Source: a virus
UHGV virus genome: UHGV-0040698
Strand: one strand, 5' to 3'
DNA length: 20,193 nucleotides
Shown here piece after piece: positions 1,139 to 20,193 of the stretch (position 1 is the first letter of the stretch; every line of letters starts with the position of its first letter). The translations under genes and the position numbers were made by a program. The notes under the pieces were generated by a model. The model was given only the letters and a program-made list of their open reading frames with translations. It had not been told where the DNA came from and made no database searches.

Positions 1139-1161
1139 TCTTATTTTTAAGGATGATGATT

Positions 1162-1605: not shown

Positions 1606-1608
1606 TAT

Positions 1609-1634: not shown

Positions 1635-1648
1635 TCCAAACCAAGATA

Positions 1649-2011
1649 TTAATCCATATCTAAGCTAACATTTAGAATAGCTAGACAACCTTCTATAAAT
1701 CCCTCAGCCATCTGTATCTCAATGCGTATTATTTTCTCATCCTTTTTGCGAGCTTTAGCGAGCTTTCTTTTAGAGATACCGTATAGGTAATGGGCAACAA
1801 GAAGCGAGTGTTCTTCAGGTCTTTTTTGCTTTAGACGAGCAAGACAACCTTCAATAATTAATGCATCACTATCTGAACAAGCCTGACGTGTTTTGCTTGT
1901 ATAGGGAAGAAGCCCTTTAAACCCAGCAGCTATAGGCGAATAGTCTACCCCAGAACTATCACTCGCCGCCCATGCACCCCAACGATCCAGAACCATCTGA
2001 ATATCACGCAT
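1649..2011 (-). CDS. Antitermination protein Q (phage 82 / QuuD-like Q family)
   Basis: Product begins MRDIQMVLDRWGAWAA...IAAGFKGL, the characteristic N-terminus of enterobacterial prophage Q proteins; track start at 2026 adds 5 residues; last gene of the minus-strand operon. Confidence 0.8.
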   Translation of the reverse strand: MRDIQMVLDRWGAWAASDSSGVDYSPIAAGFKGLLPYTSKTRQACSDSDALIIEGCLARLKQKRPEEHSLLVAHYLYGISKRKLAKARKKDEKIIRIEIQMAEGFIEGCLAILNVSLDMD

Positions 2012-2028
2012 CAACTTTCTCCACAAAA

Positions 2029-3024: not shown

Positions 3025-3025
3025 C

Positions 3026-3841: not shown

Positions 3842-3938
3842 TGGTTTCTCCACAAATTTTTATCCACGAGCGGGACTGCACTCCCTTTTCGTTGATGCAG
3901 GATGAACTTACTGCGATTTTTAATAGTTATCAAGGATA

Positions 3939-3958
3939 CACTGTTCATAAATACAGTA
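3939..3958. promoter_or_regulatory. LexA (SOS) box upstream of the KilA-N gene
   Basis: caCTGTtcataaatACAGta matches the CTGT-N8-ACAG core of the E. coli LexA box consensus; lies in the 150-bp intergenic gap between rusA and the KilA-N gene. Confidence 0.6.
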
Positions 3959-4003
3959 TCTTTAACGAGGTAATACCCAAATTTAGGGTGTTGCTCAATT
4001 CCG

Positions 4004-4399
4004 TTACCGAGTTGCTAATTTGCAACTCGCTTTTTCGTACTTACTGATAGTGATCTCGACCTTCCCCTCCGGGATAACCGGTCCCCACTCCACCAGCATT
4101 CTTTTCACCTGACTGTCGTCTTCCCACACACCCGCGTGGGTCAGGGCGTCAAACAGCGCCTTGTTATAGTTGTCCAGATCGCGGATCCGGTTATCCGGAG
4201 GAAACAACACGATCTCCACTGAAGCAGGTGCCGACGTTGGTTTTGGCAGACGACGTAACTGCTCAACTATTGCTGCACACGCCGCGCTCTGGAATTTGCG
4301 CCCCGCCGCGCTTATCAGGCTCTTACCTGCAAACGCCCCTTTGTTGGGGTGTCGCCAGTACGTGTTCACGCTGGGCGGGAAAGGCAGGATCAGCTTCAT
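4004..4399 (-). CDS. rusA: Holliday junction resolvase RusA
   Basis: ~130-aa product with conserved RusA-like acidic core (DLDNYNKALFDALT...W.DD.QV); ATG with GAGGGG upstream; ATGA overlap with upstream gene. Confidence 0.8.
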   Translation of the reverse strand: MKLILPFPPSVNTYWRHPNKGAFAGKSLISAAGRKFQSAACAAIVEQLRRLPKPTSAPASVEIVLFPPDNRIRDLDNYNKALFDALTHAGVWEDDSQVKRMLVEWGPVIPEGKVEITISKYEKASCKLATR

Positions 4400-4722
4400 A
4401 CTTTCAGACCCCTCTCATGTAACCAGTGGGCTGCACGCAACCTGGCGTTCTCCTCACCGGCAAGCAGTGCGCGGATGATACCGACCGCTTCGCTGTCGTC
4501 GTCCTTCACTGCGGTATGAAGCGTGATCCCCCGGGCCACGCCACGCTTTATCGTGATGACGCCTTTTTTCTCCAGTGCGCGAAGATGCTCCACCGCTGCA
4601 TTCACCGAACGGTATCCCAGCATGGTTGCCACCTCCTGATTGGTTGGCGGAAAGCCACGTTCTTTCTGGTAAGAAATCAGCATATCCAGCACCTGCTGCT
4701 GGCATTGAGTTAACGTCGTCAT
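4396..4722 (-). CDS. LexA N-terminal DNA-binding-domain protein without peptidase domain
   Basis: LTQCQQQVLDMLISYQKERGFPPTNQEVATMLGYRSVNAAVEHLRALEKKGVITIKRGVARGI parallels the LexA winged-helix N-domain (LT.RQ.EV...I......G.PPT..EIA..LG.RSPNAAEEHLKAL.RKGVIEI..G.SRGI); 108 aa, no S24 Ser/Lys domain; GGAGA SD. Confidence 0.7.
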   Translation of the reverse strand: MTTLTQCQQQVLDMLISYQKERGFPPTNQEVATMLGYRSVNAAVEHLRALEKKGVITIKRGVARGITLHTAVKDDDSEAVGIIRALLAGEENARLRAAHWLHERGLKV

Positions 4723-5372
4723 GCCGCCATCTCCCTGACCAGTTTTTCTGCCTGCTGGCGAACCTGCGCCAGAAACGCCTCACCACATGCCTCAAGTTCA
4801 TCGCGCCCGATGTAGCTGATTGCCGGTCCCTTCCAGGTCTTGTCGAAAACAGCAATAGCACCAGCGAAGAAAGCGCCTGTCGGCACCTGCTTCTCATCCT
4901 TCGGGATAAACCAGGCAGGCAGTTCAAAACCAATACGCCCGCGAATAAAAGCAATATGATCTGCATCTTCCGGCCACCACACTTCGCTGGTGGCAGCTTT
5001 GATCAGGAAAACATAGCGCCCGCCTTTATCACGCATGGCACTGGCATGCTTCATGATGTAACGCATGCCGGTGATGTATTGCCCCTCATGCTGACTGGCG
5101 CGGCTGTATGGGGGATTACCAAAGGCAGCACCTTTAAGCTCCGCAAGACGTTCTGACCAGTCATGCGCCAGCGCGTTGTCTTCCGCCGTGTAATACGCGG
5201 CACATTTGGCGTTATCACCGTCAGTGAACAGATCCAGAACAAACGGGCCAAACAGGGTGTTAATTCCCCAGAAAATGTTGTCCGGCGTGCGCCACTGATC
5301 GCCCACTTCCTTCAGTTCATGGGCTGGTTTGTTCCGCAGTTCCACCAGCGCCTGGCAATATTTATTACTCAT
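4719..5372 (-). CDS. Phage N6-adenine DNA methyltransferase (Dam-like)
   Basis: FGNPPYS catalytic motif IV of N6-adenine MTases; start set at ATG 5372 (TAATG overlap with upstream stop, GGGGG SD) rather than the GTG at 5405. Confidence 0.75.
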   Translation of the reverse strand: MSNKYCQALVELRNKPAHELKEVGDQWRTPDNIFWGINTLFGPFVLDLFTDGDNAKCAAYYTAEDNALAHDWSERLAELKGAAFGNPPYSRASQHEGQYITGMRYIMKHASAMRDKGGRYVFLIKAATSEVWWPEDADHIAFIRGRIGFELPAWFIPKDEKQVPTGAFFAGAIAVFDKTWKGPAISYIGRDELEACGEAFLAQVRQQAEKLVREMAA

Positions 5373-5860
5373 TAAGCCCCCACGTAATTCCCTGACAGAT
5401 ACCACTCTTCACCCGATGCAGCGCGCTTGCTGCTTTTCCGTAAGCACCGCTCACGACGCGCCAGAAAATTGTTTCGTTCTGGCTGGGAGTGGCTTTCACG
5501 GAATGCCGCCATCCACACGGTTGCAGCACGACGGTATAAGCCCCTGGACTCCAGTTCTTCCGCCTGGCGGGTCAGGCACAAAATCACACGGGGATCGTTA
5601 GTGCCGACATAGAAATTGCGCACAGGTCTGGTTTCACGAACTGGTTGTGGTTCCGGTTCCTGCGCTCTCTCAGTCAGGCGCGGGAAATGTCTGCGTGTAT
5701 CTCCTTCACAACGGTGAGCCACACGCCCACTCTGACGTAACTTGCTTGCTGACTGCAGAACGCGCTGCCGTGAGTAACCGGCAAAAGCATCCGCAATATC
5801 TCCGGAAGTACAGCCCGGATGGGCTTCAATGAATTTCTGAACGTCATTCAAAAGACTCAT
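5372..5860 (-). CDS. Hypothetical regulator with PerC-like C-terminal region
   Basis: C-terminal AEELESRGLYRRAATVW resembles PerC-family activators; ATG at 5860 two nt after the upstream stop with GGGGG SD (track start 5866 is GTG). Confidence 0.5.
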   Translation of the reverse strand: MSLLNDVQKFIEAHPGCTSGDIADAFAGYSRQRVLQSASKLRQSGRVAHRCEGDTRRHFPRLTERAQEPEPQPVRETRPVRNFYVGTNDPRVILCLTRQAEELESRGLYRRAATVWMAAFRESHSQPERNNFLARRERCLRKSSKRAASGEEWYLSGNYVGA

Positions 5861-5862
5861 GC

Positions 5863-6804
5863 TCACCCCCTGAATCCTGCCGGGATTTGGCTGTAGTCCA
5901 CGTTGTCGTAACTGGCTTTGAAGTACGGGTCTTCGCGTTTTTCGGTGTACGTGCTGACGGACGGCGATAAGCGCAGGGAAAGCTCATCCCATTTTTCCCG
6001 CAGCTTCGACGGGCTGAGCACGTTACGGCACCAGAACGGATCGCGACTGACGCGGCTGTACATCTCGCAGATTTGTTTATGAGTACGACCATCCTGCACA
6101 CACATCAGGCGAATTTCGTTTGCCCAGGCTGTCCAGTTCGGTTCTTTGGGACGAACCACCTCGCCGTCACATTCGGCGGCCTGCTCGTACAGGGCGATGA
6201 TTTTTTTCCAGAGCCACTGTGCGCAGGTCAAATCATCCTGCGTTCCCCACTGGCGCTTTTTAGGGCTGAATACAACCGCATCAGGATGGCGAGTTAAAAA
6301 CTCCTGTTCAGCCGTCTGCGTGTCCGGTTGCGAAGCGTCCGGACGAGAAGTTTTTTTATCTGACGGATCATGTTTTGATTTTACTGACGGATCCCCGCCA
6401 GATTCTGACGGGTGAAAACCCGCTTTTTTGCCAGATTTCGACGCATCAAATTTTGACGGGTCAGATTTTGATGCGTCAGATTTTGACGGGTCAGAATCTG
6501 ACAGTTGAGAAAATGCCGCTGCCTGAAGCTTCGCAACGTTAAGCTGATAAACATTCGACGCATTGCGGTTACCCTGGCGACGCGCCTTACGCGTTAACCA
6601 GCCTTCTGCTTCCAGCCGTGCGATAGCCGTTCTGACGGTACTCATTCCCGCGCCAATCTGGCGGGCAATGGTTTCAATTGATGGCCAGCACACACCTTCG
6701 TCATTACTGAAATCAGCCAGGCGGGCCATAATTGCCACGCTGGATAATTTCATGCCTGATGCAGCGCAACCATCCCATACATAGCCGGTTAATTTAGTGC
6801 TCAT
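5863..6804 (-). CDS. Phage replication initiation protein (N-terminal winged-HTH, repeat-containing linker)
   Basis: N-terminus CWPSIETIARQIGAGMSTVRTAIARLEAEGWL is an HTH of replication-initiator type; the gene contains DNA iterons that encode the SDPSKSDASKSDPSKFDASKS repeat; GAGG SD. Confidence 0.7.
   Translation of the reverse strand: MSTKLTGYVWDGCAASGMKLSSVAIMARLADFSNDEGVCWPSIETIARQIGAGMSTVRTAIARLEAEGWLTRKARRQGNRNASNVYQLNVAKLQAAAFSQLSDSDPSKSDASKSDPSKFDASKSGKKAGFHPSESGGDPSVKSKHDPSDKKTSRPDASQPDTQTAEQEFLTRHPDAVVFSPKKRQWGTQDDLTCAQWLWKKIIALYEQAAECDGEVVRPKEPNWTAWANEIRLMCVQDGRTHKQICEMYSRVSRDPFWCRNVLSPSKLREKWDELSLRLSPSVSTYTEKREDPYFKASYDNVDYSQIPAGFRG
6355..6506. repeat. Iteron array inside the replication gene (candidate origin of replication)
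   Basis: About eight imperfect direct copies of a ~14-15 bp unit (ATTTTGACGGGTCAG, ATTTTGATGCGTCAG, GATTCTGACGGGTG ...) with TGACnnGTCA cores, analogous to ori-lambda inside gene O. Confidence 0.6.
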
Positions 6805-6813
6805 GACCGACCT

Positions 6814-7152
6814 CTATTTCCCTGAATTTACGACGAAACTGTTCGAGCGGGCTGAAGCACTCATGCTCATAGCCTTCGCGGAGGTAGATAACACGTTGTG
6901 TTTCCGGCTCCCAACGAATGACTCTGACGGGCACTCCGTAGTGATCTTTGAACCAGCGGTTAACTTGTCGCAAAGGACTGTCTCCTTCTGCCGGTTGAAA
7001 TCACCCACAGCCCACTCTGCAAAGCTGTGGGTTACAATTTCCCTGTCACCTGGTACATTTACTGCATAGCAATACTCCACCTTCGCTTTTCCACCCGGTA
7101 CAGGAAGCGCAATCAGTTGCGAGCGACGGTAGTGTGTTGTTAAACTGTTCAT
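6814..7152 (-). CDS. Hypothetical protein (112 aa)
   Basis: ATG at 7152 overlaps the upstream stop (ATGA) and has GGAGA upstream; stop 7 nt before the replication gene start; no recognisable motif. Confidence 0.4.
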
Positions 7153-7712
7153 GCGTTAGTTTCTCCACAGTCACGACACGCCACGGCGCCCGGAGCTGCA
7201 CACTCGCGGGCGTCACTACTTTCTGAAACGCAAAAGATTTTGTAGACCAGTGCTGCATGCTCCTGCAGCTTCGAAATTGAGAGGTACAGCTCATCGTTAA
7301 TTGCTGTCTTCTCATGCGGTTCCACTACACCGTCTTCAATTGCTGAACGAATCTGTTTTGAATAACTGCCGATCTGTTCAATGACTTCCAGCAGGCGTTG
7401 GTTGATATCGGCGTTGTCCACATCCTCGACGTCAGGAAGAGACACAAAGACGCCATTTGCAGACTGCGCCACAGCATCAGCAATGAAGTGAGTGCCACCA
7501 GCACGCTGTAAAACCATTGCCCATCCCAGCGGGAAAATCTGATCGCCATCTGCACGAAGGCGGTTGAATAAAGCGTTTTCTGTTACATCGAGCCAGTCAG
7601 CCGCTTCAGCGTAACCACCCGGCAACGCCGCGATAGTTTTTCTGACAGCTTTCACGTACCACTCAGGCTGTTTTTCTATTTTCCAGTGATGCTTACCCAC
7701 GGTTAGCCTCAT
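7149..7712 (-). CDS. CII-like / YdaT-like phage regulatory protein
   Basis: Position directly downstream of the Cro-like gene as in Rac ydaS-ydaT; 187-aa product; weak SD; family assignment by context and size only. Confidence 0.45.
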
Positions 7713-7743
7713 CGTTCTGTGGTTAAAAATTGAAAGTGTTCTG

Positions 7744-7944
7744 CTAATCTTTCGGATAGATATCCGGTCTTAAGTCAGATTTCGTAATTGCACCTGACGT
7801 GCATTGCTCAAGTTTTTTAGCCAGCACAAAACTGGCTTTTTTATAGCCATTGAAAACCAGCCGTAAGTAGCCAGGTGTTGAGCCAACTTTTCCGGCCAAC
7901 TCGCCCTGCTGTTCTTTGGTTAAAGAGTCCCAATACGCTTTCAT
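7744..7944 (-). CDS. Cro-like HTH regulator (YdaS-like)
   Basis: 66-aa product MKAYWDSLTKEQQGELAGKVGSTPGYLRLV...SDLRPDIYP; GGAGGT SD 9 nt before ATG 7944; divergent from the cI-like gene; the track's 167-aa version lacks an SD. Confidence 0.7.
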   Translation of the reverse strand: MKAYWDSLTKEQQGELAGKVGSTPGYLRLVFNGYKKASFVLAKKLEQCTSGAITKSDLRPDIYPKD

Positions 7945-8034
7945 ACAATATGTACCTCCGGTGTACATATTACATGATTGAAATGAACCTTCAAGATACT
8001 TGTACCTTAACGGTACAAGGGTTTTAATTTCGTT
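7945..8034. promoter_or_regulatory. Immunity-region intergenic: two palindromic operators and divergent promoters
   Basis: ATGTAC-N7-GTACAT at 7950-7968 and perfect CTTGTACC-N5-GGTACAAG at 7999-8019; minus-strand promoter TTGAAG-N16-TAATAT for the cro-like gene overlaps the first operator. Confidence 0.6.
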
Positions 8035-8709
8035 ATGAAAACAATCCATGACATCCGGCGGTCTAACGCCAGAAAACTGAGAGATGGTGTTGGCGGGAAT
8101 TCTTCCTTTGCCACTATGATTGATCGCGAGCCAACCCAGACCAGCAGGTTTATGGGAGATGGTGCTACTAAAAATATCGGTGACAGCATGGCACGACACA
8201 TCGAAAAATGTTTCGACCTGCCTGTCGGATGGCTCGATCAAGAACACCAGACAACGAACATCACAAAAAAACCTGATGTTTCAATCACTAATAAACAAAT
8301 CACATTAGTCCCTGTCATATCATGGGTACAGGCCGGAGCATGGAAAGAAGTTGGATATTCTGAGGTTGATTTGAGCACAGCAGAAACGTATCCCTGCCCT
8401 GTACCCTGTGGGGAAATGACTTATATCTTGCGGGTGATAGGTGATTCAATGATTGATGAGTACCGCCCGGGAGACATGATTTTTGTCGATCCTGAAGTAC
8501 CTGCCTGCCACGGTGACGACGTTATTGCATTGATGCACGATACAGGCGAAACCACCTTCAAAAGGTTGATAGAAGATGGGACACAGCGTTATCTCAAAGC
8601 GTTAAACCCAAACTGGCCTGAGCCTTACATTAAGATCAACGGTAATTGCTCTATAATTGGTACAGTGATTTTCTCAGGAAAACCAAGAAGATACAAAATC
8701 AAAGCCTAA
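8035..8709 (+). CDS. cI-like prophage repressor with S24 (LexA-type) autopeptidase domain
   Basis: C-terminal GDSM...FKRL Ser/Lys dyad spacing typical of S24 peptidases; N-terminal CI-type DNA-binding region; divergent from the cro-like gene. Confidence 0.85.
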   Translation: MKTIHDIRRSNARKLRDGVGGNSSFATMIDREPTQTSRFMGDGATKNIGDSMARHIEKCFDLPVGWLDQEHQTTNITKKPDVSITNKQITLVPVISWVQAGAWKEVGYSEVDLSTAETYPCPVPCGEMTYILRVIGDSMIDEYRPGDMIFVDPEVPACHGDDVIALMHDTGETTFKRLIEDGTQRYLKALNPNWPEPYIKINGNCSIIGTVIFSGKPRRYKIKA

Positions 8710-8718
8710 TCAATGTTT

Positions 8719-8745
8719 ATGAACCTGCTTCGGCAGGTTTTTTTA
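8719..8745 (+). terminator. Rho-independent terminator after the repressor gene
   Basis: GAACCTGC-TTCG-GCAGGTT stem with UUCG tetraloop followed by a 7-T run, 10 nt after the cI-like stop. Confidence 0.7.
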
Positions 8746-8747
8746 TA

Positions 8748-8780
8748 CTTGACAATGTACCTTTGGGATACATAATGTAC
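8748..8780 (+). promoter_or_regulatory. Sigma70-like promoter with embedded ATGTACC operator half-sites
   Basis: TTGACA (8748-8753), 16-nt spacer, CATAAT (8770-8775); ATGTACC occurs in the spacer and over the -10, the same half-site as the cI/cro operators. Confidence 0.6.
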
Positions 8781-8902
8781 CCAAGCGAAACAACGAACAG
8801 GCAGGACGCCCACGAAGTAGCCGCCTGGGGCATATGAAGTCCAGGATGATTCGTTGAGTCATGTTGTGCCACTAGGCACTCATGTTAAAGCAGGTGTATG
8901 AA

Positions 8903-9178
8903 ATGAAAGTCCAGATTTTAAACAATAACTGTGAAGTCGTTTGGTCATACGACATAGCCGCCCCTGTAGATCAGAGCGGCGATAGCTGGACCAATGGGAA
9001 ACATCAGATTATGGCTGGAGTTGTGTTCTCTTTACGCCGTGCTTTGGAACAGGCTGAAGTATTTCCATCAGACCCTGAATGGAAATGGCCTTTTTCTATT
9101 TGTCCAAATTCGGAGAGCACATTTCAGAAAATTGGTCAGAAAGTCGCACTCGAAGAGCATCAGCCAACTGTTTCCTGA
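8903..9178 (+). CDS. Hypothetical small protein (91 aa)
   Basis: AGGTG 8 nt before ATG 8903; first ORF after the repressor-controlled promoter; overlaps the convergent ORF 9096-9341 by 83 nt so one of the two may be spurious. Confidence 0.35.
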   Translation: MKVQILNNNCEVVWSYDIAAPVDQSGDSWTNGKHQIMAGVVFSLRRALEQAEVFPSDPEWKWPFSICPNSESTFQKIGQKVALEEHQPTVS

Positions 9179-9341
9179 TTTTTTCAGGTAACTCGTCGGC
9201 ATCGCAGAAACAACAACGCTCGATCATGTTGAAAGCCGATTCGTAGAACTGTTTCTGCTGAGTGTCGCTGAGACAGGAAAAGAGCGACGTTACGATGATT
9301 TTATTAATTGCATTATCAAGTTCTTTTTCATCAAAAGTCAT
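9096..9341 (-). CDS. Hypothetical small protein (81 aa)
   Basis: AAGGAA SD 7 nt before ATG 9341; helical charged product; antisense to the plus-strand operon. Confidence 0.4.
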   Translation of the reverse strand: MTFDEKELDNAINKIIVTSLFSCLSDTQQKQFYESAFNMIERCCFCDADELPEKIRKQLADALRVRLSDQFSEMCSPNLDK

Positions 9342-9577
9342 TTGATTTTCCTTTTATGTATACGGGCTTAAAAGGATACCACCGAGCCTGAAGTGGTGAA
9401 AAGACAGGCACATAACAGCTAAGTATTTTCAACCAAAGAGAATCCTTAGCGTTGTGGTGAATGCGGCTCAGCGCACGCGGGTTAAGGTTGAGGCTGACAG
9501 TCGACCTTCTGTGGATACCCACCCGTCTGGTGTGCAACCTTCGCCAGGCACCGGGAGGCACCCGGCACCACAACTTT

Positions 9578-9642
9578 ATGCTGTGTGTAGTCCTGGCGGT
9601 ACCAGTTTGTACCCTTGCTTCCGGCTGGTACCGTCCTTTTTA
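9578..9642 (+). ncRNA. DicF-like small RNA candidate with intrinsic terminator
   Basis: CUGGCGGUACCAGUUUGUACCC...CCUUUUU resembles the Qin-prophage DicF core UGGCGGUAUCAGUUUUACUCC...GCCCUUUUU as I recall it; terminal stem CGGUACCAG/CUGGUACCG differs from DicF GGCGG/CCGCC by compensatory changes; sits in a ~440-bp GC-rich noncoding stretch. Confidence 0.45.
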
Positions 9643-9778
9643 CAAAACAGAGAAGAGCATCACCGGACGACGGGCTCATAACCCAATCCATCCGGGCGGC
9701 TGCTACCGCAGGTGTTCTTCTCTGTTTTGTGGAGAAACTAATCGGCCTTGCAGGGTCGATATGATGAGGAGCAGCAAA

Positions 9779-10141
9779 ATGGCTAGCGAACGCAGTACTG
9801 ATGTGCAGGCATTTATCGGGGAGCTGGACGGCGGCGTATTTGAAACCAAAATCGGCGCAGTTCTCAGTGAAGTCGCTTCCGGTGTGATGAACACGAAAAC
9901 CAAAGGTAAGGTCTCACTCAACCTGGAAATCGAACCATTTGATGAGAACCGTGTGAAAATCAAACACAAACTCTCATATGTTCGCCCGACTAACCGCGGG
10001 AAAATTTCCGAAGAAGACACCACCGAAACGCCGATGTATGTCAATCGCGGTGGTCGCCTGACTATTCTGCAGGAAGACCAGGGACAATTACTGACTCTTG
10101 CCGGTGAACCTGACGGAAAACTCCGCGCAGCAGGTCATTAA
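9779..10141 (+). CDS. Hypothetical protein, YfdP-like (120 aa)
   Basis: GAGGAG SD 7 nt before ATG 9779; the track's longer 226-aa ORF is an unsupported upstream extension; first of five genes whose sizes and order match CPS-53 yfdP-T. Confidence 0.6.
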   Translation: MASERSTDVQAFIGELDGGVFETKIGAVLSEVASGVMNTKTKGKVSLNLEIEPFDENRVKIKHKLSYVRPTNRGKISEEDTTETPMYVNRGGRLTILQEDQGQLLTLAGEPDGKLRAAGH

Positions 10142-10206
10142 TATCGTTCTTAATTAACTGATTATTTATCTCATCACTGAATATCTTTATATAGTGAGGA
10201 CTTATT

Positions 10207-11031
10207 ATGTCTCAGAACTTAGACGCAACCGCAATTAATCAAATCCATGCCCTTATTTCTGCTCAGGGTGTTAATGAAATTATCAGTAAGATTGGTGCCG
10301 ATGCTGTGGCATTGCCTGAGAATTTCCGCATTCATGATCTGGAAAAATTTAATTTAAATCGCTTCCGTTTCCGTGGTGCGCTTTCCACTGCCAGCATCGA
10401 TGACTTTACCCGTTATTCTAAAGATCTTGCAGATGAAGGCACCCGCTGCTTTATCGATGCTGATAATATGCGTGCCGTCAGTGTGCTTAACCTGGGTACT
10501 ATTGATGAACCAGGTCACGCAGATAACACCGCCACTCTCAAACTGAAAAAGACAGCACCGTTCTCTGCTCTGTTGTCTGTTAATGGCGAGCGTAACTCCC
10601 AGAAATCACTGGCAGAATGGATTGAAGACTGGGCCGACTACCTTGTGGGCTTTGATGCTAATGGTGACACCATTCAGGCAACAAAAGCGGCTGCGGCGGT
10701 CCGTAAAATCACGATTGAAGCAAACCAGACCGCTGATTTTGAAGATAATGACTTCAGCGGCAAACGCTCCCTGATGGAGTCTGTCGAAGCGAAGACCAAA
10801 GACATTATGCCAGTGGCATTTGAATTTAAATGCATTCCGTTTGAAGGTCTGAAAGAACGTCCGTTTAAATTACGCCTCAGCATTATCACTGGCGATCGTC
10901 CGGTACTGGTTCTGCGCATTATTCAGCTGGAGGCGGTGCAGGAAGAAATGGCTAACGAATTTCGTGATCTGCTTGTTGAGAAATTCAAGGACAGCAAAGT
11001 AGAAACCTTTATTGGTACTTTCACCGCCTGA
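10207..11031 (+). CDS. yfdQ: YfdQ-like prophage protein (274 aa)
   Basis: GAGGA SD; 274 aa, and the following genes of 178, 120 and 101 aa reproduce the K-12 CPS-53 yfdQ-R-S-T sizes and order; no sequence comparison possible here. Confidence 0.6.
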
Positions 11032-11158
11032 TTTCATTACTGCAAATGCCCCTGCGGGGGCATTTATGGAAACGTAATTTACTCAATAATCGCCGGATGG
11101 TGAGGGATTCTTTTTACCAGAATTCAGCGCGGTGCAGCGCATATACGTGGAGAACAAA

Positions 11159-11695
11159 ATGTCATTTATTAAAACTTTTTCCGGGAAGCATTTTTATTAT
11201 GACAGGATAAATAAAGACGACATCGATATTAACGATATCGCGGTTTCCCTTTCAAATATCTGTCGCTTTGCCGGTCATCTTTCGCACTTCTACAGCGTCG
11301 CCCAACATGCGGTTCTTTGCAGCCAGCTGGTGCCGCAGGAATTTGCTTTTGAAGCGTTAATGCATGATGCAACAGAAGCGTATTGCCAGGACATTCCCGC
11401 ACCACTGAAACGCCTTCTTCCTGACTATAAACAAATGGAAGAAAAAATAGACTCCGTAATCCGTGAGAAATACGGATTACCCCCAGTTATGAGTACGCCC
11501 GTGAAATATGCCGATCTCATCATGCTGGCAACCGAACGCCGCGATCTCGGGCTTGATGATGGCTCTTTCTGGCCTGTACTGGAAGGTATCCCGGCAACAG
11601 AGATGTTCAACGTGATTCCACTGGCACCGGGCCATGCCTACGGGATGTTTATGGAACGCTTTAACGAGTTATCGGAGTTACGCAAATGCGCATGA
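11159..11695 (+). CDS. yfdR: HD-domain phosphohydrolase, YfdR-like (178 aa)
   Basis: H...HD...D metal-binding pattern (AGHLSHF...MHDATEAY); GGAGAA SD before ATG 11159 (track start 11132 adds 9 residues). Confidence 0.7.
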   Translation: MSFIKTFSGKHFYYDRINKDDIDINDIAVSLSNICRFAGHLSHFYSVAQHAVLCSQLVPQEFAFEALMHDATEAYCQDIPAPLKRLLPDYKQMEEKIDSVIREKYGLPPVMSTPVKYADLIMLATERRDLGLDDGSFWPVLEGIPATEMFNVIPLAPGHAYGMFMERFNELSELRKCA

Positions 11696-12048
11696 ATGTT
11701 TTCGAAATGGAAGGGTTTCTTCGTGGGAGATGTGTACCGCGAGATCTGAAAGTAAATGAAACAGATGCTGAATACCTGGTGCGTAAATTCGATGCGCTTG
11801 AAGCTAAATGTGCAGCACAGGAAAACAAAGTAATACCAGTGTCAACTGAACTGCCACCAGCAAATGAAAGTGTTTTGTTATTCGATGCTAACGGAGAAGG
11901 CTGGCTAATTGGTTGGCGTTCTCTCTGGTACACCTGGGGACAAAAAGAAACCGGAGAATGGCAGTGGACATTTCAGGTCGGGGACCTTGAAAACGTCAAT
12001 ATCACTCACTGGGCAGTAATGCCAAAAGCACCGGAGGCTGGAGCATAA
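11686..12048 (+). CDS. yfdS: YfdS-like protein (120 aa)
   Basis: GGAG SD; start overlaps the upstream stop; size and position match yfdS. Confidence 0.6.
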   Translation: MRMNVFEMEGFLRGRCVPRDLKVNETDAEYLVRKFDALEAKCAAQENKVIPVSTELPPANESVLLFDANGEGWLIGWRSLWYTWGQKETGEWQWTFQVGDLENVNITHWAVMPKAPEAGA

Positions 12049-12353
12049 TGACCACTTTTACCGACAAAGAACTGATTAAAGAAATTAAAGAGCGTATCAG
12101 CAGCCTTGACGTGCGAGACGATATTGAGCGCCGTGCTTATGAAATCGCACTCCTATCTCTGGAAGTAGAACCAGATGAACGCGAAGCTTATGAATTATTC
12201 ATGGAAAAGCGTTTCGGTGACTTAGTAGATCGTCGGAGAGCAAAAAACGGCAATAACGAATACATGGCATGGGATATGACTCTCGGTTGGATCGTCTGGC
12301 AGCAACGAGCTGGTATCCATTTTTCAACAATGTCACAGCAAGAGGTGAAATAA
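12048..12353 (+). CDS. yfdT: YfdT-like protein (101 aa)
   Basis: TAATG overlap with the upstream stop, GGAGG SD; size and position match yfdT. Confidence 0.6.
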   Translation: MTTFTDKELIKEIKERISSLDVRDDIERRAYEIALLSLEVEPDEREAYELFMEKRFGDLVDRRRAKNGNNEYMAWDMTLGWIVWQQRAGIHFSTMSQQEVK

Positions 12354-12703
12354 TGGAGCCATACAGCCTCACACTCGATGAGGCCTGTCATTTTCTCAAG
12401 ATATCCAGACCGACTGCCATTAACTGGATACGCACAGGGCGTCTTCAGGCAACACGCAAAGATCCCACTAAGAATAAATCTCCTTACCTCACAACACGAC
12501 AAGCCTGCATTGCGGCTCTTCAGTCTCCGCTGCATACTGTCCAGGTGAGTGCGGGTGATGGCATAACAGAGGAAAGAAAATGTCACTCTTCCGCAGAGGT
12601 GAAATATGGTACGCCAGTTTCACATTGCCGAACGGTAAAAGATTTAAACAGTCTCTTGGAACAAAGGACAAAAGGCAGGCGACAGAACTCCATGACAAGC
12701 TAA
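12353..12703 (+). CDS. Excisionase-like (AlpA/Xis-type HTH) protein
   Basis: [28 protein letters not shown] helix-turn-helix of excisionase type; TAATG coupling to the upstream gene; 3' end overlaps the integrase start by 124 nt, so the true C-terminus is uncertain. Confidence 0.5.
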
Positions 12704-13743
12704 AGGCTGAAGCATGGCGGGTCAGCAAACTTGGTGAAATACCTGATATAACGTTCGAGGAAGCGTGTGTCAGGTGGCTTGAAGAGAAAGCACATAAAAA
12801 ATCACTGGACGATGACAAAAGCCGGATCGGATTCTGGCTTCAACATTTCGCAGGAATGCAACTAAGAGACATTACTGAATCAAAAATTTATTCAGCAATG
12901 CAGAAAATGACGAACCGGCGTCATGAGGAAAACTGGAGACTCAGGGCAGAAGCATGCAGAAAAAAAGGGAAACCTGTTCCAGAATACACGCCAAAACCAG
13001 CGTCCGTTGCAACGAAGGCTACGCATCTTTCATTTATAAAGGCCCTACTAAGAGCCGCAGAGCGTGAATGGAAAATGCTGGATAAGGCACCAATTATTAA
13101 AGTGCCTCAACCAAAGAATAAACGGATCCGCTGGCTGGAGCCCCATGAAGCACAAAGGCTGATTGATGAATGTCCGGAGCCATTAAAGTCTGTTGTTGAA
13201 TTTGCACTGGCAACAGGCTTAAGACGCTCGAACATCATCAACCTTGAATGGCAACAAATAGACATGCAGCGCCGGGTGGCATGGATAAACCCGGAAGAGA
13301 GTAAATCAAACCGCGCAATTGGCGTTGCGCTGAATGATACTGCATGTCGCGTTTTGAAAAAACAAATCGGGAATCATCACCGTTGGGTATTTGTGTACAA
13401 GGAAAGCTGTACCAAACCAGACGGAACGAAAGCGCCAACAGTAAGGAAGATGCGGTATGACGCAAACACAGCCTGGAAAGCGGCGCTGAGACGGGCTGGT
13501 ATTGATGATTTCAGATTTCACGACTTGAGACACACCTGGGCAAGTTGGCTGGTTCAAGCCGGAGTCCCGTTGTCAGTGTTACAGGAAATGGGAGGCTGGG
13601 AGTCTATCGAAATGGTTCGTCGATATGCTCACCTTGCACCTAATCACCTTACCGAACACGCACGGCAAATAGACTCGATCCTGAACCCATCGGTCCCAAA
13701 TTTGTCCCAGTCAAAAAATAAGGAAAGTACTAATGATGTGTAA
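12580..13743 (+). CDS. Lambda-family tyrosine integrase (Rac IntR-like)
   Basis: N-terminal [14 protein letters not shown] arm-binding region; catalytic R (LATGLRRSN), HxxR ([10 protein letters not shown]) and Y (VRRYAHL); GAGGAA SD; transcribed toward the tRNA-derived att core. Confidence 0.9.
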
Positions 13744-13757
13744 CTTATTGATTTAAA

Positions 13758-13806
13758 TGGTGCCGATAATAGGAGTCGAACCTACGACCTTCGCATTACG
13801 AATGCG
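13758..13806 (-). other. Partial tRNA-Thr(CGU) (thrW) 3' end, 49 nt: attachment-site core
   Basis: Minus strand reads CGCATTCGTAATGCGAAGGTCGTAGGTTCGACTCCTATTATCGGCACCA = anticodon loop (CGT), T-arm and acceptor 3' strand of E. coli thrW; the 5' half of the tRNA is absent. Confidence 0.75.
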
Positions 13807-13894
13807 TAAATTGATCTTGTAAAATCAATACCTATCGAATTTAAATGGATTTTTTGCCACAATATTGCCACAGTTCGTTAGGAATCAGACAGAA

Positions 13895-14968
13895 ATGGCG
13901 ACTATACGCAAACGTGGTAACTACCAATGGGAAGCTCAAATCCGTAAACGAGGTTTTCCCTCTCAAACCAAAACCTTTAACACCAAAGTAGAAGCAGAAG
14001 CTTGGGCCAAAATGATCGAGTCAGAAATGGCGAGAGGAGTTTGGCTTAGCCGCAGCGAAGCGGAATCTACGACATTGTATGAAGCCCTAACGCGATATGA
14101 AAAAGAGATTGTTCCCGACAAAAAAGGGGCAGTGCAAGACCAATCATTGGTGCGGATACTAAAAGGCACTCAGCTGGCGAAAAACTATATGGCCAGCATC
14201 AGGAGTGCCGATGTCGCCAAGCTGAGAGATGAATGGTTGAAAATCTATGCCCCTGCAACCGTTTTAAGGCGTTTGGCCTTACTTTCTCATGTATTCAACG
14301 TTTCGCGGAAAGAATGGGGCATGGAGAGCCTGCTGAACCCCGTAGAGGCCATTCGCAAACCTCAACCCAAGAACTCCAGGACCAGACGCCTGGAAGCGCT
14401 GCCTGTAGTTTCTGAGAAAACCGGTGTTACGTCAGGAAAGGAAATAGCCAACGAGATCGAACATATCATCGCCGCAACACATTCATTAGTATTGCCAGCA
14501 ATCATTCTTCTGGCGTTAGAGACAGCCATGCGCCGTAGCGAAATCGCAGATCTTCGATGGCGCTTTATCGATCTTGATCGGCGAGTTGCACATCTGCCGG
14601 ATACTAAGAATGGTAATGCCCGCGATGTCCCTTTATCAACGAAAGCCATCACGATACTGTCCAGTCTCAAGGAACATTCTAAGCCAGCTGCTGATAAGGT
14701 TTTTGATATGCGTGCAGACGCGATTACCCGAGCTTTTGACCGAGCTGTAAAACGAGCCAGAGAACGATACGAGAAAACAAACTCATTATGTGATGAATCA
14801 TTCCTTAAAGATTTAAGATTTCATGACCTTCGACATGAAGCAACTTCTCGACTTGCTGAAATTTTCCCTATGCATGAACTGACCAAAATTACAGGACATA
14901 AAGATCCAAGAATGCTAATGCGGTATTATCATCCAAAAGCTGAAGATTTGGCGTTAAAGTTGAAATAA
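13895..14968 (+). CDS. Tyrosine recombinase / integrase of the second island
   Basis: Catalytic R (ETAMRRSE), HxxR (FHDLRHEATS) and Y (LMRYYH); ATG at 13895 (the track start 13865 is a TTG). Confidence 0.85.
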   Translation: MATIRKRGNYQWEAQIRKRGFPSQTKTFNTKVEAEAWAKMIESEMARGVWLSRSEAESTTLYEALTRYEKEIVPDKKGAVQDQSLVRILKGTQLAKNYMASIRSADVAKLRDEWLKIYAPATVLRRLALLSHVFNVSRKEWGMESLLNPVEAIRKPQPKNSRTRRLEALPVVSEKTGVTSGKEIANEIEHIIAATHSLVLPAIILLALETAMRRSEIADLRWRFIDLDRRVAHLPDTKNGNARDVPLSTKAITILSSLKEHSKPAADKVFDMRADAITRAFDRAVKRARERYEKTNSLCDESFLKDLRFHDLRHEATSRLAEIFPMHELTKITGHKDPRMLMRYYHPKAEDLALKLK

Positions 14969-14977
14969 GGACGTTAT

Positions 14978-15868
14978 ATGGAATATAAAAATAATTTGGT
15001 TGACGCATCATCCAAATTAAACAACCCTCAACTATTGGCTATAATATACTTAATACCTTTTGGATACTTGATTGTAGAAAACCCATTATGGCTAGAAAAT
15101 ATATACATTGCCGCTCCAATTTTTCTATCATCTATAGCTTTATTAACCAGTGTATACATAGGATATCGTGATTTATTAAATAAAGTATTTAATAATACAG
15201 TGGTTAAGTGGGGCGTAACTGGCTTTACATATTCAGTATGCTTATGGATCGCAAAGTTTAAGCTTGACATAGCTTATGGTATAGCCCCAGAAAATCTTAA
15301 TTACTCAACATTAGCTTATGCTTTCATGCTCTCATTTCCAATAGGAGCAATGATTTGTGCAACTACAGTCTATATATACATATTTTTGCGAGATGTATCC
15401 CCAGCAAAAATAGTAATATCCTCTATGATTTCAGTATATATTGGAAACTTGGCTCAACATCATATACAAGTGAACAATCTTCCTGAAAAAATAATATTAA
15501 TAGGACTCATAATTATGGTCCCCTATAACATGGTCAATCTAGCCAGTTCATTAGTTATTAAAAGGAAATTTAATTTTAATCGTTTAGTATCAGGCTTATC
15601 CCTTTTTGCTGTGTCAGTTGCTCTTTTTATTATTAGCATGACAGCAATGAAATATATTGAAAGATTTCAAGAAAAGTTTATTTTTCTTGATGCAAGAACA
15701 TCTACGACATGTGGTAGCGCAGAAAGCAAATCTCTTTATATTGAAAAAAATGAAAATCAGTGTTATAAAATATCAGGAAATAAATTCTCGGAGTTAAGAC
15801 TAACTCTTGTAGATAAAAACATCCCGAATATAAATAATAAGGGCACTTCAACTTATGAACAAAAATAA
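14978..15868 (+). CDS. Polytopic membrane protein of unknown function (296 aa)
   Basis: AGGA SD 8 nt before ATG, 9 nt after the integrase stop; multiple hydrophobic segments; strongly AT-rich. Confidence 0.65.
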   Translation: MEYKNNLVDASSKLNNPQLLAIIYLIPFGYLIVENPLWLENIYIAAPIFLSSIALLTSVYIGYRDLLNKVFNNTVVKWGVTGFTYSVCLWIAKFKLDIAYGIAPENLNYSTLAYAFMLSFPIGAMICATTVYIYIFLRDVSPAKIVISSMISVYIGNLAQHHIQVNNLPEKIILIGLIIMVPYNMVNLASSLVIKRKFNFNRLVSGLSLFAVSVALFIISMTAMKYIERFQEKFIFLDARTSTTCGSAESKSLYIEKNENQCYKISGNKFSELRLTLVDKNIPNINNKGTSTYEQK

Positions 15869-16082
15869 CCCTGCTAATTCATTTTCTATAGAAGCAAGGA
15901 AAGAAGCTTTTCGGAGAGCTGAAGCCAGTCTTTTTTTATCAAGTAAAGATCCCAAAGGCTCCTCATTTTTTAATGAAATAAAAAATAAGGTAATCAATGG
16001 AGAGCTAACCTATGAAGAGGCAAAGAGAGAAGTGTTAAATCATCACATTGAACAATCTAAAAATAAAATTAAAAAAGGCTAA
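15855..16082 (+). CDS. Small charged protein (75 aa), unknown function
   Basis: ATG overlaps the end of the membrane-protein gene by 14 nt; weak SD. Confidence 0.45.
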   Translation: MNKNNPANSFSIEARKEAFRRAEASLFLSSKDPKGSSFFNEIKNKVINGELTYEEAKREVLNHHIEQSKNKIKKG

Positions 16083-16342
16083 CATCCAGTTAGCTGTATT
16101 AGCTCAGGCTCGAACTGACAGTTTGCGTAGGCAAAATGCAACCAAATCTGACAGTCTGCTTTGAGCGAGGAGCGGACGTTAGTAATTGTATCGTCGTGGG
16201 CGCATTATTATTTTTCTATTCAACTAAATGTGATAGGGGTGTCTTTTAGTGTTGTTTCTATTGTTCACAAAGGCTTCAATTTGATATGAAGCCCTTATTT
16301 AAGAATTTAGGGCTAGGATGCTTTTGCGTAGCATTGCTATTA

Positions 16343-17296
16343 TTATTTAGGGCGGGCTGATGTTAATGTCGCTAGCAAGGTTGGCATGAACCATTCTCTA
16401 ACAAGCTCCTCATACATATTTGAAAGATTTGTTAACTTATGCCAAACCACTTCGGAACAGTAACTCAAAAAATGTTCATAATGTTCAGGTTTTACCTCTT
16501 TATCAATATCTATTTGAAGTTGGATCAACTCCTTTTGGCTCGATACCATCGGCTTCCAAAATTCATGACCAGACCATATATCTTGTCTAAGAGCAATTAC
16601 AATAAAGTTATTTACCATCTCTATAGCTTCATCGAAAGAGACAGGAAATTGTACGGCCGCTTTACCTTGTAATCGGTTTATTTCTTTTAATTGATAGTTA
16701 AAAAGTGAGAATGCGCCATACATTTTTGATCTTTTACCATATGCACGTAATGGAACAAGCGCATCTTCATCATCCAGAATTTCATTTTCAAGAGGTATAT
16801 ATATAGTCTTTGAGTCTTTTTTAGAATAATTCGGGTCTTCTGGTATGAGAACTTTATCTATGTAATCATTAAGGCAAATAAAAAATGCCTTTTCTGTATT
16901 AGTGTCAACTAGTATCAATAATACTGGAATTGCAATACCTATAGACTGAACAGTCAAAATGTCTGATATATCTAACTTGAATTTTGCGACAGGGATTTCG
17001 ACAAAATCGCTTTTATCTTCTGTTAACTTTCCTTTGGTTACATTTCCACGAGCATAGGCTTTACGTGTACAATATTCAATACAATCTGAAGATTTTAGTT
17101 GTACAAAGAAGTTTTCACCAAGGGTTTCTGCAATACTTTCACTGTCATCAATAAAATCAAATAATTCAACAACGCAATCAATACCATAGTCAGCGCCATA
17201 GCTATGTACGACCCATTCGCGAGGTAGTTTTTCCCGCAGAACCCTGATTGAAATGTCTTCTTTTACCTGGCTAATAGACCGTCTTTTCTTTGGCAT
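16343..17296 (-). CDS. DUF4365-like (PD-(D/E)xK nuclease-like N-terminus) protein, 317 aa
   Basis: Strong GGAGG SD; N-terminal HSYGADYGIDCVVELFD...FFVQLKSS pattern resembling DUF4365; AT-rich. Confidence 0.65.
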   Translation of the reverse strand: MPKKRRSISQVKEDISIRVLREKLPREWVVHSYGADYGIDCVVELFDFIDDSESIAETLGENFFVQLKSSDCIEYCTRKAYARGNVTKGKLTEDKSDFVEIPVAKFKLDISDILTVQSIGIAIPVLLILVDTNTEKAFFICLNDYIDKVLIPEDPNYSKKDSKTIYIPLENEILDDEDALVPLRAYGKRSKMYGAFSLFNYQLKEINRLQGKAAVQFPVSFDEAIEMVNNFIVIALRQDIWSGHEFWKPMVSSQKELIQLQIDIDKEVKPEHYEHFLSYCSEVVWHKLTNLSNMYEELVREWFMPTLLATLTSARPK

Positions 17297-17472
17297 GTTA
17301 CCTCCTAAAATTACAAATTAAAAAACAGATCTTACACTCGAATGCTTAAAATGTCCGCTTCTGACACAGGGCTGCTGTTGCAGCCCTGACAACCTCGTAA
17401 CATTCCCCCCTTCATTATTAGTTTTAAATCTTGTCAATTTTCTTCTTTCAAGAATATGCTTGCATCAAGCAA

Positions 17473-18867
17473 TCACGGCTTTTCCTTGGCTTTGAGTTTA
17501 TCGGCGACATCTGGAACAATACTAAACTCGGTTACTGATGCAAGTACCTGGTTTTTCCATTGGGTCTCACAGATGATCTCTCCATTGTGTTCAAACCAAT
17601 GTGTTGCCCCCGGCAGGAAATCATGGGACATTGGATAAGCAGCATTAGGGTTATGAAATACTTCAAGTTCAAAACACCAAAATTCTTTGCCATCGCAAAG
17701 ATTAATATATTCAGGCGATTGAATATCTAGATCGAAGTCAATTGGTTCCAAGGCCCCTTCAGTCCTATCAAATAAAATCCCAACCCTGCGGGCTTTCACA
17801 ATAGGTGAGGAAAATTCAGCTTGGATTGCCATTCGCTGGAATTTTGGCAATGTTCCAGCATTACTAAACAAGATAGCAGATAAATTTTCAATCTCTGGGT
17901 GGTTAAATAGTCCTGCCGGAATATTTACATGGCCTAAAAGCTTTTCAATTGATAATGCAGCAGCCTTCATACCTTTGGATGTTTTGACTGTATGTGCGGT
18001 TTGCCCATACAAATAGGTTGGAAGTGACTCGCGAGACCAGACCATAGTGCCCCCACCGCTAAAATCCGCTATAGCGATTGCAAATGGAAATCCTTTAACA
18101 TGCGGTAGTTCTTCATACTTTCTCTGGAGTTTAGATCTGATGGTCTTAGCGAACCGTGCTGCCATATCACCTGCTGTGCGAGCTAATCGATCTCCGGGGG
18201 GGAATTGTGTTTGAGGCAACTTTAGGCTGCCCGGACCAGTTGGATTCGCGGTGACCGCCTCAACATATGCTTTGTTATTACCGTTCATGAGCATAAAATC
18301 CGGAGATGGATAATCTTGAAAAACTTTAATTCCCTGCTCTTTAAAACATGCGAAAAGGTATAGCTCCCAGATTCTAGAGTTGAATCCTTGGGTCTGGAGA
18401 TCGGTTCTGAAGTTATCATCAGGTTTTGGTAATGCCAGATAGAGCTCGACAATTAAATGAAATGCTCCTCGGTACTTTATCGTGGACGATAATTGTATAA
18501 ATGCCTGACAAACATTCCGCTCACCAACATGATCCAGTCGGGCTCTACGTGATTGCCCAGATGGAATCGGTAATAAATCTCCTCCGGCTGAAAGGTGCTT
18601 ATCAAGATGCACCAATGCCTCCTGCTCGGTAAAACACATCTCATGCTCGAGAGGTACCAGCACATAATCTTCCCGTCGCCTGAGCACAACAAGGCCATAT
18701 GAATTTTTGCTGTATTGAAGGACTGCACCATATCCAAGCCCTTTTTCATTTGACCAAGCGGAAAGTAATTCCGCATTACCATAATTAGGCCCATGTGGCA
18801 ATGACATTGCAAATATCTTAAATGCTTCAGTAGGCATTCTTTGTAGGCTATAGATCTTATTAGACAT
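17473..18867 (-). CDS. Hypothetical protein (464 aa), second gene of a two-gene operon
   Basis: GGAGAG SD 8 nt before ATG 18867 (the track's ATG 18873 is only 2 nt from the SD); 22 nt after the upstream gene; no named motif. Confidence 0.65.
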   Translation of the reverse strand: MSNKIYSLQRMPTEAFKIFAMSLPHGPNYGNAELLSAWSNEKGLGYGAVLQYSKNSYGLVVLRRREDYVLVPLEHEMCFTEQEALVHLDKHLSAGGDLLPIPSGQSRRARLDHVGERNVCQAFIQLSSTIKYRGAFHLIVELYLALPKPDDNFRTDLQTQGFNSRIWELYLFACFKEQGIKVFQDYPSPDFMLMNGNNKAYVEAVTANPTGPGSLKLPQTQFPPGDRLARTAGDMAARFAKTIRSKLQRKYEELPHVKGFPFAIAIADFSGGGTMVWSRESLPTYLYGQTAHTVKTSKGMKAAALSIEKLLGHVNIPAGLFNHPEIENLSAILFSNAGTLPKFQRMAIQAEFSSPIVKARRVGILFDRTEGALEPIDFDLDIQSPEYINLCDGKEFWCFELEVFHNPNAAYPMSHDFLPGATHWFEHNGEIICETQWKNQVLASVTEFSIVPDVADKLKAKEKP

Positions 18868-18889
18868 TTTCATCTCTCCATAGATAATC

Positions 18890-19942
18890 CTAAAATTCAG
18901 TTAAATTGAAGCTTCCTTGATTTAGATGACATATTTCTGGGACGACCGATTCTGATATACCTTCACTTTCATGAATCCCTAGTGTTACTACTGTACTAAG
19001 CTCAGGAAACAATCTTCTCTTTGTTTTTGGTTTAATTTTTATATGTGAGATCATCTCCAAAAATCTGGAGGTTGTATAAATTGTGTCATAATGAGCAGAT
19101 CCTTCGCCATCGTCATACCATGAGCCTGTATCCACTACTACAGTGTTAAGTAATGGTGCTATTAAATTGAAATTATCAGTGCGAATAGAGACTGCAAACT
19201 TGAAGGGATAAGAATCTTGCTGTGCAAAGTAATCCTCACCACGCCCGTATTGCCTAGTAATTTCAACTATTCCGCGCACCAAAAGATAAATATAATTTTC
19301 GTCAAGGTTCAGCAACTCAATGGATTCAACATTGCACCAATCAACAGTTGTTTGTGAAGATAATATATCCAGTTCGTCAGGGATATTATTCATTGTGATG
19401 TCAGTAACTTCATTCTGTACTTCCTCGATTATTGATTCGGTAATAACACGCTCAAGTTCATCGAAGGTATCGAATATTATGTTACACAGTTCTATTATTA
19501 GTTTAGCACTCTCAAAAAACTGTTTGGGGTTACTATCAAATGAATGTTCGCTAATATGGGTGTAATCGTTTAAAGAAGAATAGTTTTTATTGAACCATGC
19601 TATACCATCATCTAGTCTTTCGATAGCTACATCATCAAGAAGTTGATCGGGTATATGCTTCTGGGCGATGTATTTTGCTTGCTGTTTACGGGTAACAGTG
19701 GCGTTATTTTTGTTTTTAGTGAACCATGGAGACGCCATAACTCTGTCATTTGGTGCCAGTCGTTTCAGCACATGATTTATTAGCTCACGTATTGCAAATG
19801 CAAAGTTGTTGAAGCGCAGAGGATTACCATGAGAACAATAGTTGCGAAGACTGGCATGTAAGAGTTCATGCTCAAAGTCAGTTTCTAGGTGCTCTTGAAA
19901 CTCCTTGATGAAATCCATTTCAAGCATTTTTTTTAGTTTCAT
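18890..19942 (-). CDS. Hypothetical protein with HEPN-like R-x4-H motif (350 aa)
   Basis: ATG at 19942; N-terminal FAFAIRELINHVL contains R-x4-H; AT-rich; first gene of the operon. Confidence 0.6.
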   Translation of the reverse strand: MKLKKMLEMDFIKEFQEHLETDFEHELLHASLRNYCSHGNPLRFNNFAFAIRELINHVLKRLAPNDRVMASPWFTKNKNNATVTRKQQAKYIAQKHIPDQLLDDVAIERLDDGIAWFNKNYSSLNDYTHISEHSFDSNPKQFFESAKLIIELCNIIFDTFDELERVITESIIEEVQNEVTDITMNNIPDELDILSSQTTVDWCNVESIELLNLDENYIYLLVRGIVEITRQYGRGEDYFAQQDSYPFKFAVSIRTDNFNLIAPLLNTVVVDTGSWYDDGEGSAHYDTIYTTSRFLEMISHIKIKPKTKRRLFPELSTVVTLGIHESEGISESVVPEICHLNQGSFNLTEF

Positions 19943-20059
19943 ATAAGTGCCTAATTATCAATTGATTGTGGGCTAAATAGCCTGCTTTTATGTTACAGAA
20001 CATACTGGTTCATTGGATAGTTGAAGCTGGATAAAAATGCACGGTTACTTAGATTAAGT

Positions 20060-20090
20060 AATCAAGAATCAAGAATCAAGAATCAAGAAT
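20060..20090. repeat. Heptanucleotide tandem repeat (AATCAAG)x4 plus partial copy
   Basis: Four perfect AATCAAG units and a partial AAT, about 120-150 bp upstream of the start codon at 19942. Confidence 0.8.
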
Positions 20091-20193
20091 GTCGGACTTT
20101 AAAAGTAATAGTTTCCCATATCTGTATCCAGTCACTGTGACCTGCCCCCACGATTAGATACAACACTCAGTTAGTAACGTCGGAATCTTCATT

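Follow-up and report, generated by a model that had tools for sequence, protein, structure and literature searches.

Between two integrase genes of the viral genome UHGV-0040698 lies a piece of the tRNA gene thrW, and the question it raises is whether the DNA on its two sides belongs to one mobile element or to two. A preliminary description of this stretch of 20,193 nt (hereafter, the window) proposed that two elements sit in tandem at a tRNA-gene integration hotspot. The analysis presented here leaves little doubt that two independent integrative elements stand in a tandem array, both in the segment of thrW that runs from the anticodon stem to the 3′ end, and that the region is their internal junction. 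The coordinates of the features discussed below are collected in Table 1.

The thrW fragment and the genes on its two sides

The minus-strand letters of window positions 13758-13806, CGCATTCGTAATGCGAAGGTCGTAGGTTCGACTCCTATTATCGGCACCA, are identical to positions 28-76 of thrW, the tRNA-Thr(CGU) gene adjoining proA in E. coli. They represent the last 49 nt of this 76-nt gene: their first base is the first to be paired in the anticodon stem, and they end with CCA. An exact match of this length cannot be a product of chance. The preliminary description had the exactness, the length and the CCA end right and set the start in the anticodon loop, where it is in the stem; the span it gave (13744-13894) contains the fragment and corresponds to the whole intergenic region, the core being confined to 13758-13806. 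Both distances it reported stand, the fragment being located 14 nt downstream of the int1 stop codon and 88 nt upstream of the int2 ATG, and strands and coordinates agree with its statement that int1 reads toward the core and int2 away from it. The core occurs once within the window, and no consensus promoter or terminator was found within 13650-13950. The 5′ half of the tRNA is missing, as had been claimed; in the alignment of att sites described below, island sequence takes its place.

The fragment is a hybrid junction that joins the int-side end of a prophage to the int-side end of an island. The extra CGC that makes the core 49 instead of 46 nt long in the window is contributed by the island side.

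On the left, the window begins inside a lambdoid prophage (element 1) and is collinear up to 13803 or 13806 with many E. coli prophages, at 97-98.7% identity. From xis-int1 through the core to 13803, the DNA is 98.5-99.5% identical to that of the Shigella phages SfI, SfII, SfIV and SfV, and the int1 region shares 80% DNA identity with P22 and its relatives. The organization of this end is that of the SfI, SfII, SfIV, SfV and P22 integration module: a closely related Int of 387 residues, xis upstream of int, an int that reads toward the core, and a 46-bp core, identical to thrW, that follows just after the int stop codon. The SfI record annotates its 46-bp attP core 14 nt past the int stop, a spacing equal to that in the window. 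Unlike in a free phage of the SfI type, where gtr genes follow the core, here an island follows it; the prophage side otherwise differs in nothing material. The 17-nt extension of att homology past the tRNA 3′ end, TTTAAATCAATAAGTTA, is identical in the related genome PSS-13, differs by one base from the SfI attP and resembles the native attB flank. Further inside the prophage, two ORFs of 310 and 150 residues (206-1605, plus strand), on the strand opposite to the adjacent Q gene, match the function-unknown families phrog_7651 and phrog_8552 and have no match in Pfam, NCBIfam or PADLOC; the pair may be a prophage moron.

On the right, the sequence from 13807 onward continues unbroken to an intact thrW and then proA in TUM10008, PSS-13 and Z0117EC0040. 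The integrase at this end, int2, matches PF00589 over nearly its full length (positions 6-170 of 172), as does int1, and the two proteins are 30% identical to each other. Alignment with int1 places the int2 residues R213, H310-x-x-R313, H335 and Y344. Among the phage integrases in the collection, the best match to int2 reaches at most 40% identity, so we assign it no named phage relative.

Table 1. Positions of the features of both elements and of their junction in the window
Feature	Position	Strand	Basis or remark
Element 1 early region, lambdoid prophage	1-12268	.	PHROG matches; collinear with prophages in many E. coli
Q-like antiterminator	1649-2026		PHROG
HNH/DUF968 protein, KilA-N regulator, RusA, O-like replication initiator	within 1-12268		PHROG
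CI/LexA-type repressor	8035-8709		PHROG
xis, excisionase-like, overlapping int1 start	12269-12703	+	Pfam HTH_17, E = 3e-08; SfI, SfIV and SfV counterparts annotated xis/excisionase
int1, P22/SfV-family tyrosine integrase, 387 aa	12580-13743	+	Pfam Phage_integrase, E = 3.5e-48
17-nt att-homology extension (P arm of element 1) past the 3′ end of the tRNA; holds int1 stop codon	13741-13757	-	att alignment
thrW 3′ fragment, shared att core (49 nt)	13758-13806	-	Exact match to thrW; seven-way att alignment
Part of core belonging to SfI/SfV/P22-type attP (46 nt)	13758-13803	-	Phage genomes match window only to 13803
P′ arm of element 2	13807-13894	+	Conserved beside core in every island copy, regardless of the neighbour on the other side
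Imperfect inverted repeat ATTGATCTT/AAAATCAAT beside core	13810-13829	.	Repeat search
Direct repeat pair TTGCCACA-N3-TTGCCACA	13854-13872	+	47 nt from core; 23-41 nt upstream of int2 ATG
int2, tyrosine integrase, 357 aa, away from core	13895-14968	+	Pfam Phage_integrase, E = 3.6e-26
Element 2 cargo start	14978-20193	.	Pfam, PADLOC, PHROG; RefSeq annotation of identical genes
296-aa ORF after int2	from 14978		PHROG family member
vbhA-like antitoxin	15855-16082		Pfam/PADLOC/PHROG
DUF4365 protein	16343-17296	-
PD-T7-1-like protein, 466 aa	17473-18873	-	PADLOC, E = 3.8e-83
pPIWI-associated nuclease	18890-19942	-	Pfam pP_pnuc_1/2; PADLOC Aga_Nuclease

A three-copy array in related genomes

The preliminary description expected the intact thrW and further copies of the core to lie outside the window, and this is where they are found in near-identical relatives. 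The E. coli genome TUM10008, of all complete genomes with this junction the closest and 99.5% identical to window positions 11048-20137, presents the order paoD-yagP′, 46-nt core, prophage remnant with int1, 49-nt core, int2 and island, intact thrW, proA. The three core copies start at positions 2306 (46 nt), 21259 (49 nt) and 40898 (full gene) of this locus, all on the minus strand. Seen from the junction, the intact thrW is thus located 19.6 kb rightward, by proA, and the 46-nt third copy 19 kb leftward, by yagP′/paoD. For the window's own genome, the outer copies are deduced from such relatives, since its flanks lie beyond the window and every complete E. coli genome of the collection matches less than 80% of the 20-kb stretch.

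The arms that meet at each copy were identified by aligning seven att sites: three junctions from TUM10008, one from PSS-13, the attP of SfI, the CP4-6 distal end and, from BMH-17-0027, an empty attB. Every junction in this alignment has the composition that recombination between known arms predicts. In TUM10008, the leftmost copy combines an SfI-type P′ arm with the native flank, the window-type copy an island P′ arm with an SfI-type P arm, and the thrW copy the tRNA 5′ half with an island P arm.

Each element also exists alone, which, together with the three copies in TUM10008, bears out the proposal of two tandem elements at a tRNA hotspot. The island occurs without int1 in PSS-13, and in genomes that have only the island the match begins at window position 13740-13741. 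Many genomes have the prophage but not the island, and in them homology breaks precisely at 13803 or 13806: the match stops at 13806 beside thrW or beside an island arm of this type, and at 13803 beside the arm of another P22-type phage. The exact int1-core-int2 junction is present in 16 of the 5,426 complete E. coli genomes. Each of these 16 has two to four copies of the core, so that the absence of any second copy from the flanks, named beforehand as evidence against the proposal, was seen in none of them. Across the whole collection, the core is found 7,587 times in 5,017 genomes, with a maximum of four per genome. Islander defines tandem arrays of tDNA islands as a class of their own and counts 125 of them in 2,168 genomes (PMC4383910). 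The window junction shows no difference in kind from them: an intact tDNA at the end of the array (seen in the relatives only), a 3′ tDNA fragment for each member in the orientation of the intact tDNA, an integrase for each member, independent presence and absence, and a block of identity from the anticodon arm to the 3′ end.

Read in the orientation of the tRNA, the array is B′-O-P2 (island) P′2-O-P1 (prophage) P′1-O-B, with the window showing the middle copy, P′2-O-P1. On the plus strand, the left side (xis, int1, the 17-nt extension and 46 nt of core) is the usual int-attP end of an SfI/SfV/P22-type lambdoid prophage, and the right side (three further core bases, the 88-nt P′ arm with its two TTGCCACA motifs, and int2) the int end of a separate island. 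Each integrase, a tyrosine recombinase, would swap strands within the common core, the crossover probably falling within the anticodon stem-loop. Because each element brings the 3′ part of thrW, the tRNA gene would be rebuilt on the proA side, and a displaced fragment would stay at each inner and outer junction. Either element may still be capable of excising by itself. Both orders of arrival of the two elements would yield this same structure.

Two other loci show further neighbours at thrW. At PSS-13 positions 19970-20017, the fragment still adjoins the phage-type extension of 17 nt, and beyond this lies a different island, with YfjI, DUF3987 and inovirus Gp2-like genes and no adjacent integrase. 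This neighbour probably represents a third type of element at thrW, or its scar. In the E. coli genome CUPF06 (locus positions 22806-26000), the SfV-type int and the core are followed directly by tail genes of another lambdoid prophage, homology to the window ending at 13803, and two phages appear to lie in tandem at thrW.

The island and its attachment arm

The data support a view of element 2 as an independent island of ~18-20 kb with defence genes and variable cargo. Its length is 19.6 kb in TUM10008, 18 kb in PSS-13 and ~18.7 kb in Z0117EC0040. The backbone common to these islands comprises int2, the 296-aa ORF, vbhA, remnants of trbL, trbJ and traJ, and higA. A defence-like module of three genes on the minus strand (16343-19942) is present in the window, TUM10008 and PSS-13; the otherwise collinear island of Z0117EC0040 lacks the trio and has Tn10 tet(B) in its place. 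The part of the window that belongs to the island yielded no recognisable recombination directionality factor or excisionase, and in the papers searched the island does not appear under a name. On plasmids, the sole match is a non-coding stretch of 79 nt.

That stretch, 16090-16168, lies just past vbhA, is 98.7-100% identical to Klebsiella plasmid sequence and is also kept in the island of Enterobacter vonholyi. Identity between the window and E. vonholyi stops at ~16178, where the defence module starts. The stretch could mark a boundary of cargo insertion.

The P′ arm should contain the promoter and ribosome-binding region of int2; a search for a consensus sigma-70 promoter upstream of int2 found none. 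Two kinds of repeat are present in the arm. The inverted repeat beside the core was considered as a structural hairpin, but its stem shows no compensatory changes in the Pantoea copies, which makes such a structure improbable, and no function is assigned to it. The direct repeat pair has a chance expectation of 0.02 matches in the window. In both TUM10008 and PSS-13, the opposite end of the island has a second TTGCCACA pair of like orientation, separated by 82 nt from the CCA of the intact thrW, and the ~2.7-kb element of Candidatus Pantoea haifensis described below shows this arrangement too. In int2 homologues of 59-68% identity, a repeat pair occupies the matching position relative to the int start, with an altered sequence (e.g. 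TTGGACA, TGGGACA). A pair on both arms, conserved in position and co-varying in sequence, is the pattern expected of attP and suggests that the TTGCCACA pairs are arm-type binding sites of Int2. In Z0117EC0040 the far-arm pair is absent, near an IS insertion, and the loss indicates that some copies of the island are probably immobilised.

By analogy with characterized integrases, int2 may be negatively autoregulated, the pair at 13854-13872 doubling as its operator. Such control would be expected because one repeat pair falls in the short region upstream of int2, whose promoter region overlaps the att arm of its own element. This overlap, with 88 nt from core to ATG, is the divergent tRNA-int layout described by Panis et al. 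(2010). In K-12, the thrW fragment ptwF and intF have the divergent layout, and IntF represses its own promoter ~23-fold (PMC2951348). Autoregulation of IntS has also been demonstrated, and in that study the convergent layout proved not to be autoregulated (PMC2951348). The layout of int1 relative to the core is convergent.

Element 2 has homologues in Escherichia, Enterobacter, Pantoea and Yersinia, and relatives in Thiobacillus target tRNA-Ala(CGC). In Enterobacter and Pantoea, int2 homologues of 92-99% identity are located at an equal distance from a thrW 3′ fragment, which is in each case the host's own variant. The Thiobacillus homologue, 67% identical, accompanies a 3′ fragment of tRNA-Ala(CGC) with a near-identical anticodon arm. 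Both observations fit a recognition centred on the anticodon arm, and anticodon-centred att sites are the commoner of the two classes in Islander (PMC4383910). The copy in E. vonholyi shares ~98% identity with the window between the core and ~16178, and only ~75% left of the core.

Three loci deserve separate description. In E. vonholyi, a frameshifted C-terminal remnant of a P22-type integrase (locus positions 2500-2863) lies directly left of the thrW fragment, so that the int-core-int2 layout recurs in another genus. In Candidatus Pantoea haifensis (3001-5674), an int2 homologue (93%), a TTGCCACA pair and an intact thrW are contained within ~2.7 kb, in what looks like a minimal or stripped island. 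In a Moraxellaceae MAG (2819-3819), a 61% identical int2 homologue has an intact tRNA-Ala(CGC) 106 nt upstream of it, both reading the same way and with a hairpin between them, a layout opposite to that of the window.

This distribution lends itself to a tentative reading, less probable than not, in which element 2 would belong to an undescribed family of integrative islands, still mobile and crossing genera, with a compact att and swappable defence or resistance cargo.

Rival readings and known systems

The array could be real and yet a fossil, with one or both elements no longer able to excise and the junction left as an inert scar. The TUM10008 prophage is much decayed, with many pseudogenes, the int1-type remnant of E. 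vonholyi is frameshifted, and the island retains only fragments of conjugation genes (trbJ, trbL, traJ), has suffered IS insertions and offers no excisionase that could be found. Against this, both integrase ORFs of the window are full length with their catalytic motifs, xis is intact, the core is exact, TUM10008 and PSS-13 retain both arm-repeat pairs intact, and a near-identical island in another genus points to recent movement. We consider the fossil doubtful, while granting it a real share of the probability.

Much weaker is the case for the attP of a single element, be it a free phage or one prophage that carries int2 as cargo. Such a reading would draw on the succession of int, 14 nt and core, which is the layout of the SfI attP with its gtr cargo genes after the core, and on the membership of the 296-aa ORF past int2 in a PHROG family. 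The limits of the phage matches and the chromosomal context contradict it: all phage records cease to match at 13803, in three genomes the right-hand sequence continues uninterrupted as far as the intact thrW and proA, island without phage and phage without island both occur, and arm-repeat pairs are found at both ends of the island.

Equally improbable is a functional, unusual tRNA, corresponding to the 112-nt "tRNA-Ser" that RefSeq (PGAP) places over the fragment and the island arm in dozens of genomes (window 13758-13869; TUM10008 locus 21259-21370; PSS-13 locus 20018-20129): the island arm contains CGATA, a potential pairing partner of the 3′ acceptor strand, and there is a hairpin at the place expected for a D arm, but ARAGORN detects no tRNA anywhere in the window, the site reaches 22.3 bits with the Rfam tRNA model in a partial local alignment (gathering score 29), the 112-nt RNA folds no better than shuffled sequences (z = -1.0), and the pseudo-acceptor does not co-vary with the differing acceptor stem of Pantoea thrW. 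No known RNA family reaches its gathering score anywhere in the window. A complete tRNA at this position, which the preliminary description had named as the observation that would speak against it, is thereby ruled out, and the RefSeq call is an annotation artefact; displaced tRNA fragments miscalled as tRNA genes are documented (PMC9897764).

The junction of two independent elements in thrW has well-characterized counterparts. Experiments in Shigella flexneri showed that SfI inserts into the attL of an SfX prophage already resident at thrW, forming a tandem pair (PMC3306764). The window shares with this pair the thrW target, an int1 that is 98.5% identical in DNA to SfI int, the head-to-tail arrangement of the elements and an internal att copy between them. 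SfI and SfX are related serotype-converting phages with one type of integrase, whereas here the second element is a non-phage island whose integrase is only distantly related to int1 and faces the opposite way.

The island side resembles CP4-6 of K-12 (intF/ptwF). Both have a 49-nt core from CGCATTCG, the 49-nt copy being located at the distal end of CP4-6, and in both the integrase occupies the end distant from the intact thrW and points away from the displaced fragment, at a distance of about 90-110 nt. The two differ in the length of the integrase (357 residues in int2, 466 in IntF) and in their cargo, and autoregulation, measured for IntF, is only proposed for int2. In a pairwise comparison, int2 is 25% identical to IntF over 189 residues of the catalytic domain (E = 2e-06). 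Although layout and core are in common, this is too distant for int2 to be a member of the IntF family.

The junction is, in sum, a sound example of a known and ordinary kind, whose principle is long established, at a gene that is among the most-used tDNA targets in E. coli (PMC7545054). What it adds is that the boundaries of the prophage and of the defence island are fixed to the base, that thrW of E. coli is seen to be often multiply occupied, and that a recurrent "tRNA-Ser" misannotation in RefSeq is flagged at such junctions. The island offers a small model for the swapping of defence and resistance cargo on one integrase backbone. Should element 2 indeed represent a new family, its att would be compact, with TTGCCACA pairs 82 nt and 47 nt from the two sides of the core and the second pair serving as the int2 operator. 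The common thrW core would then account for the repeated adjacency of the island and P22-type prophages, and through it the two recombination systems might engage in cross-talk.
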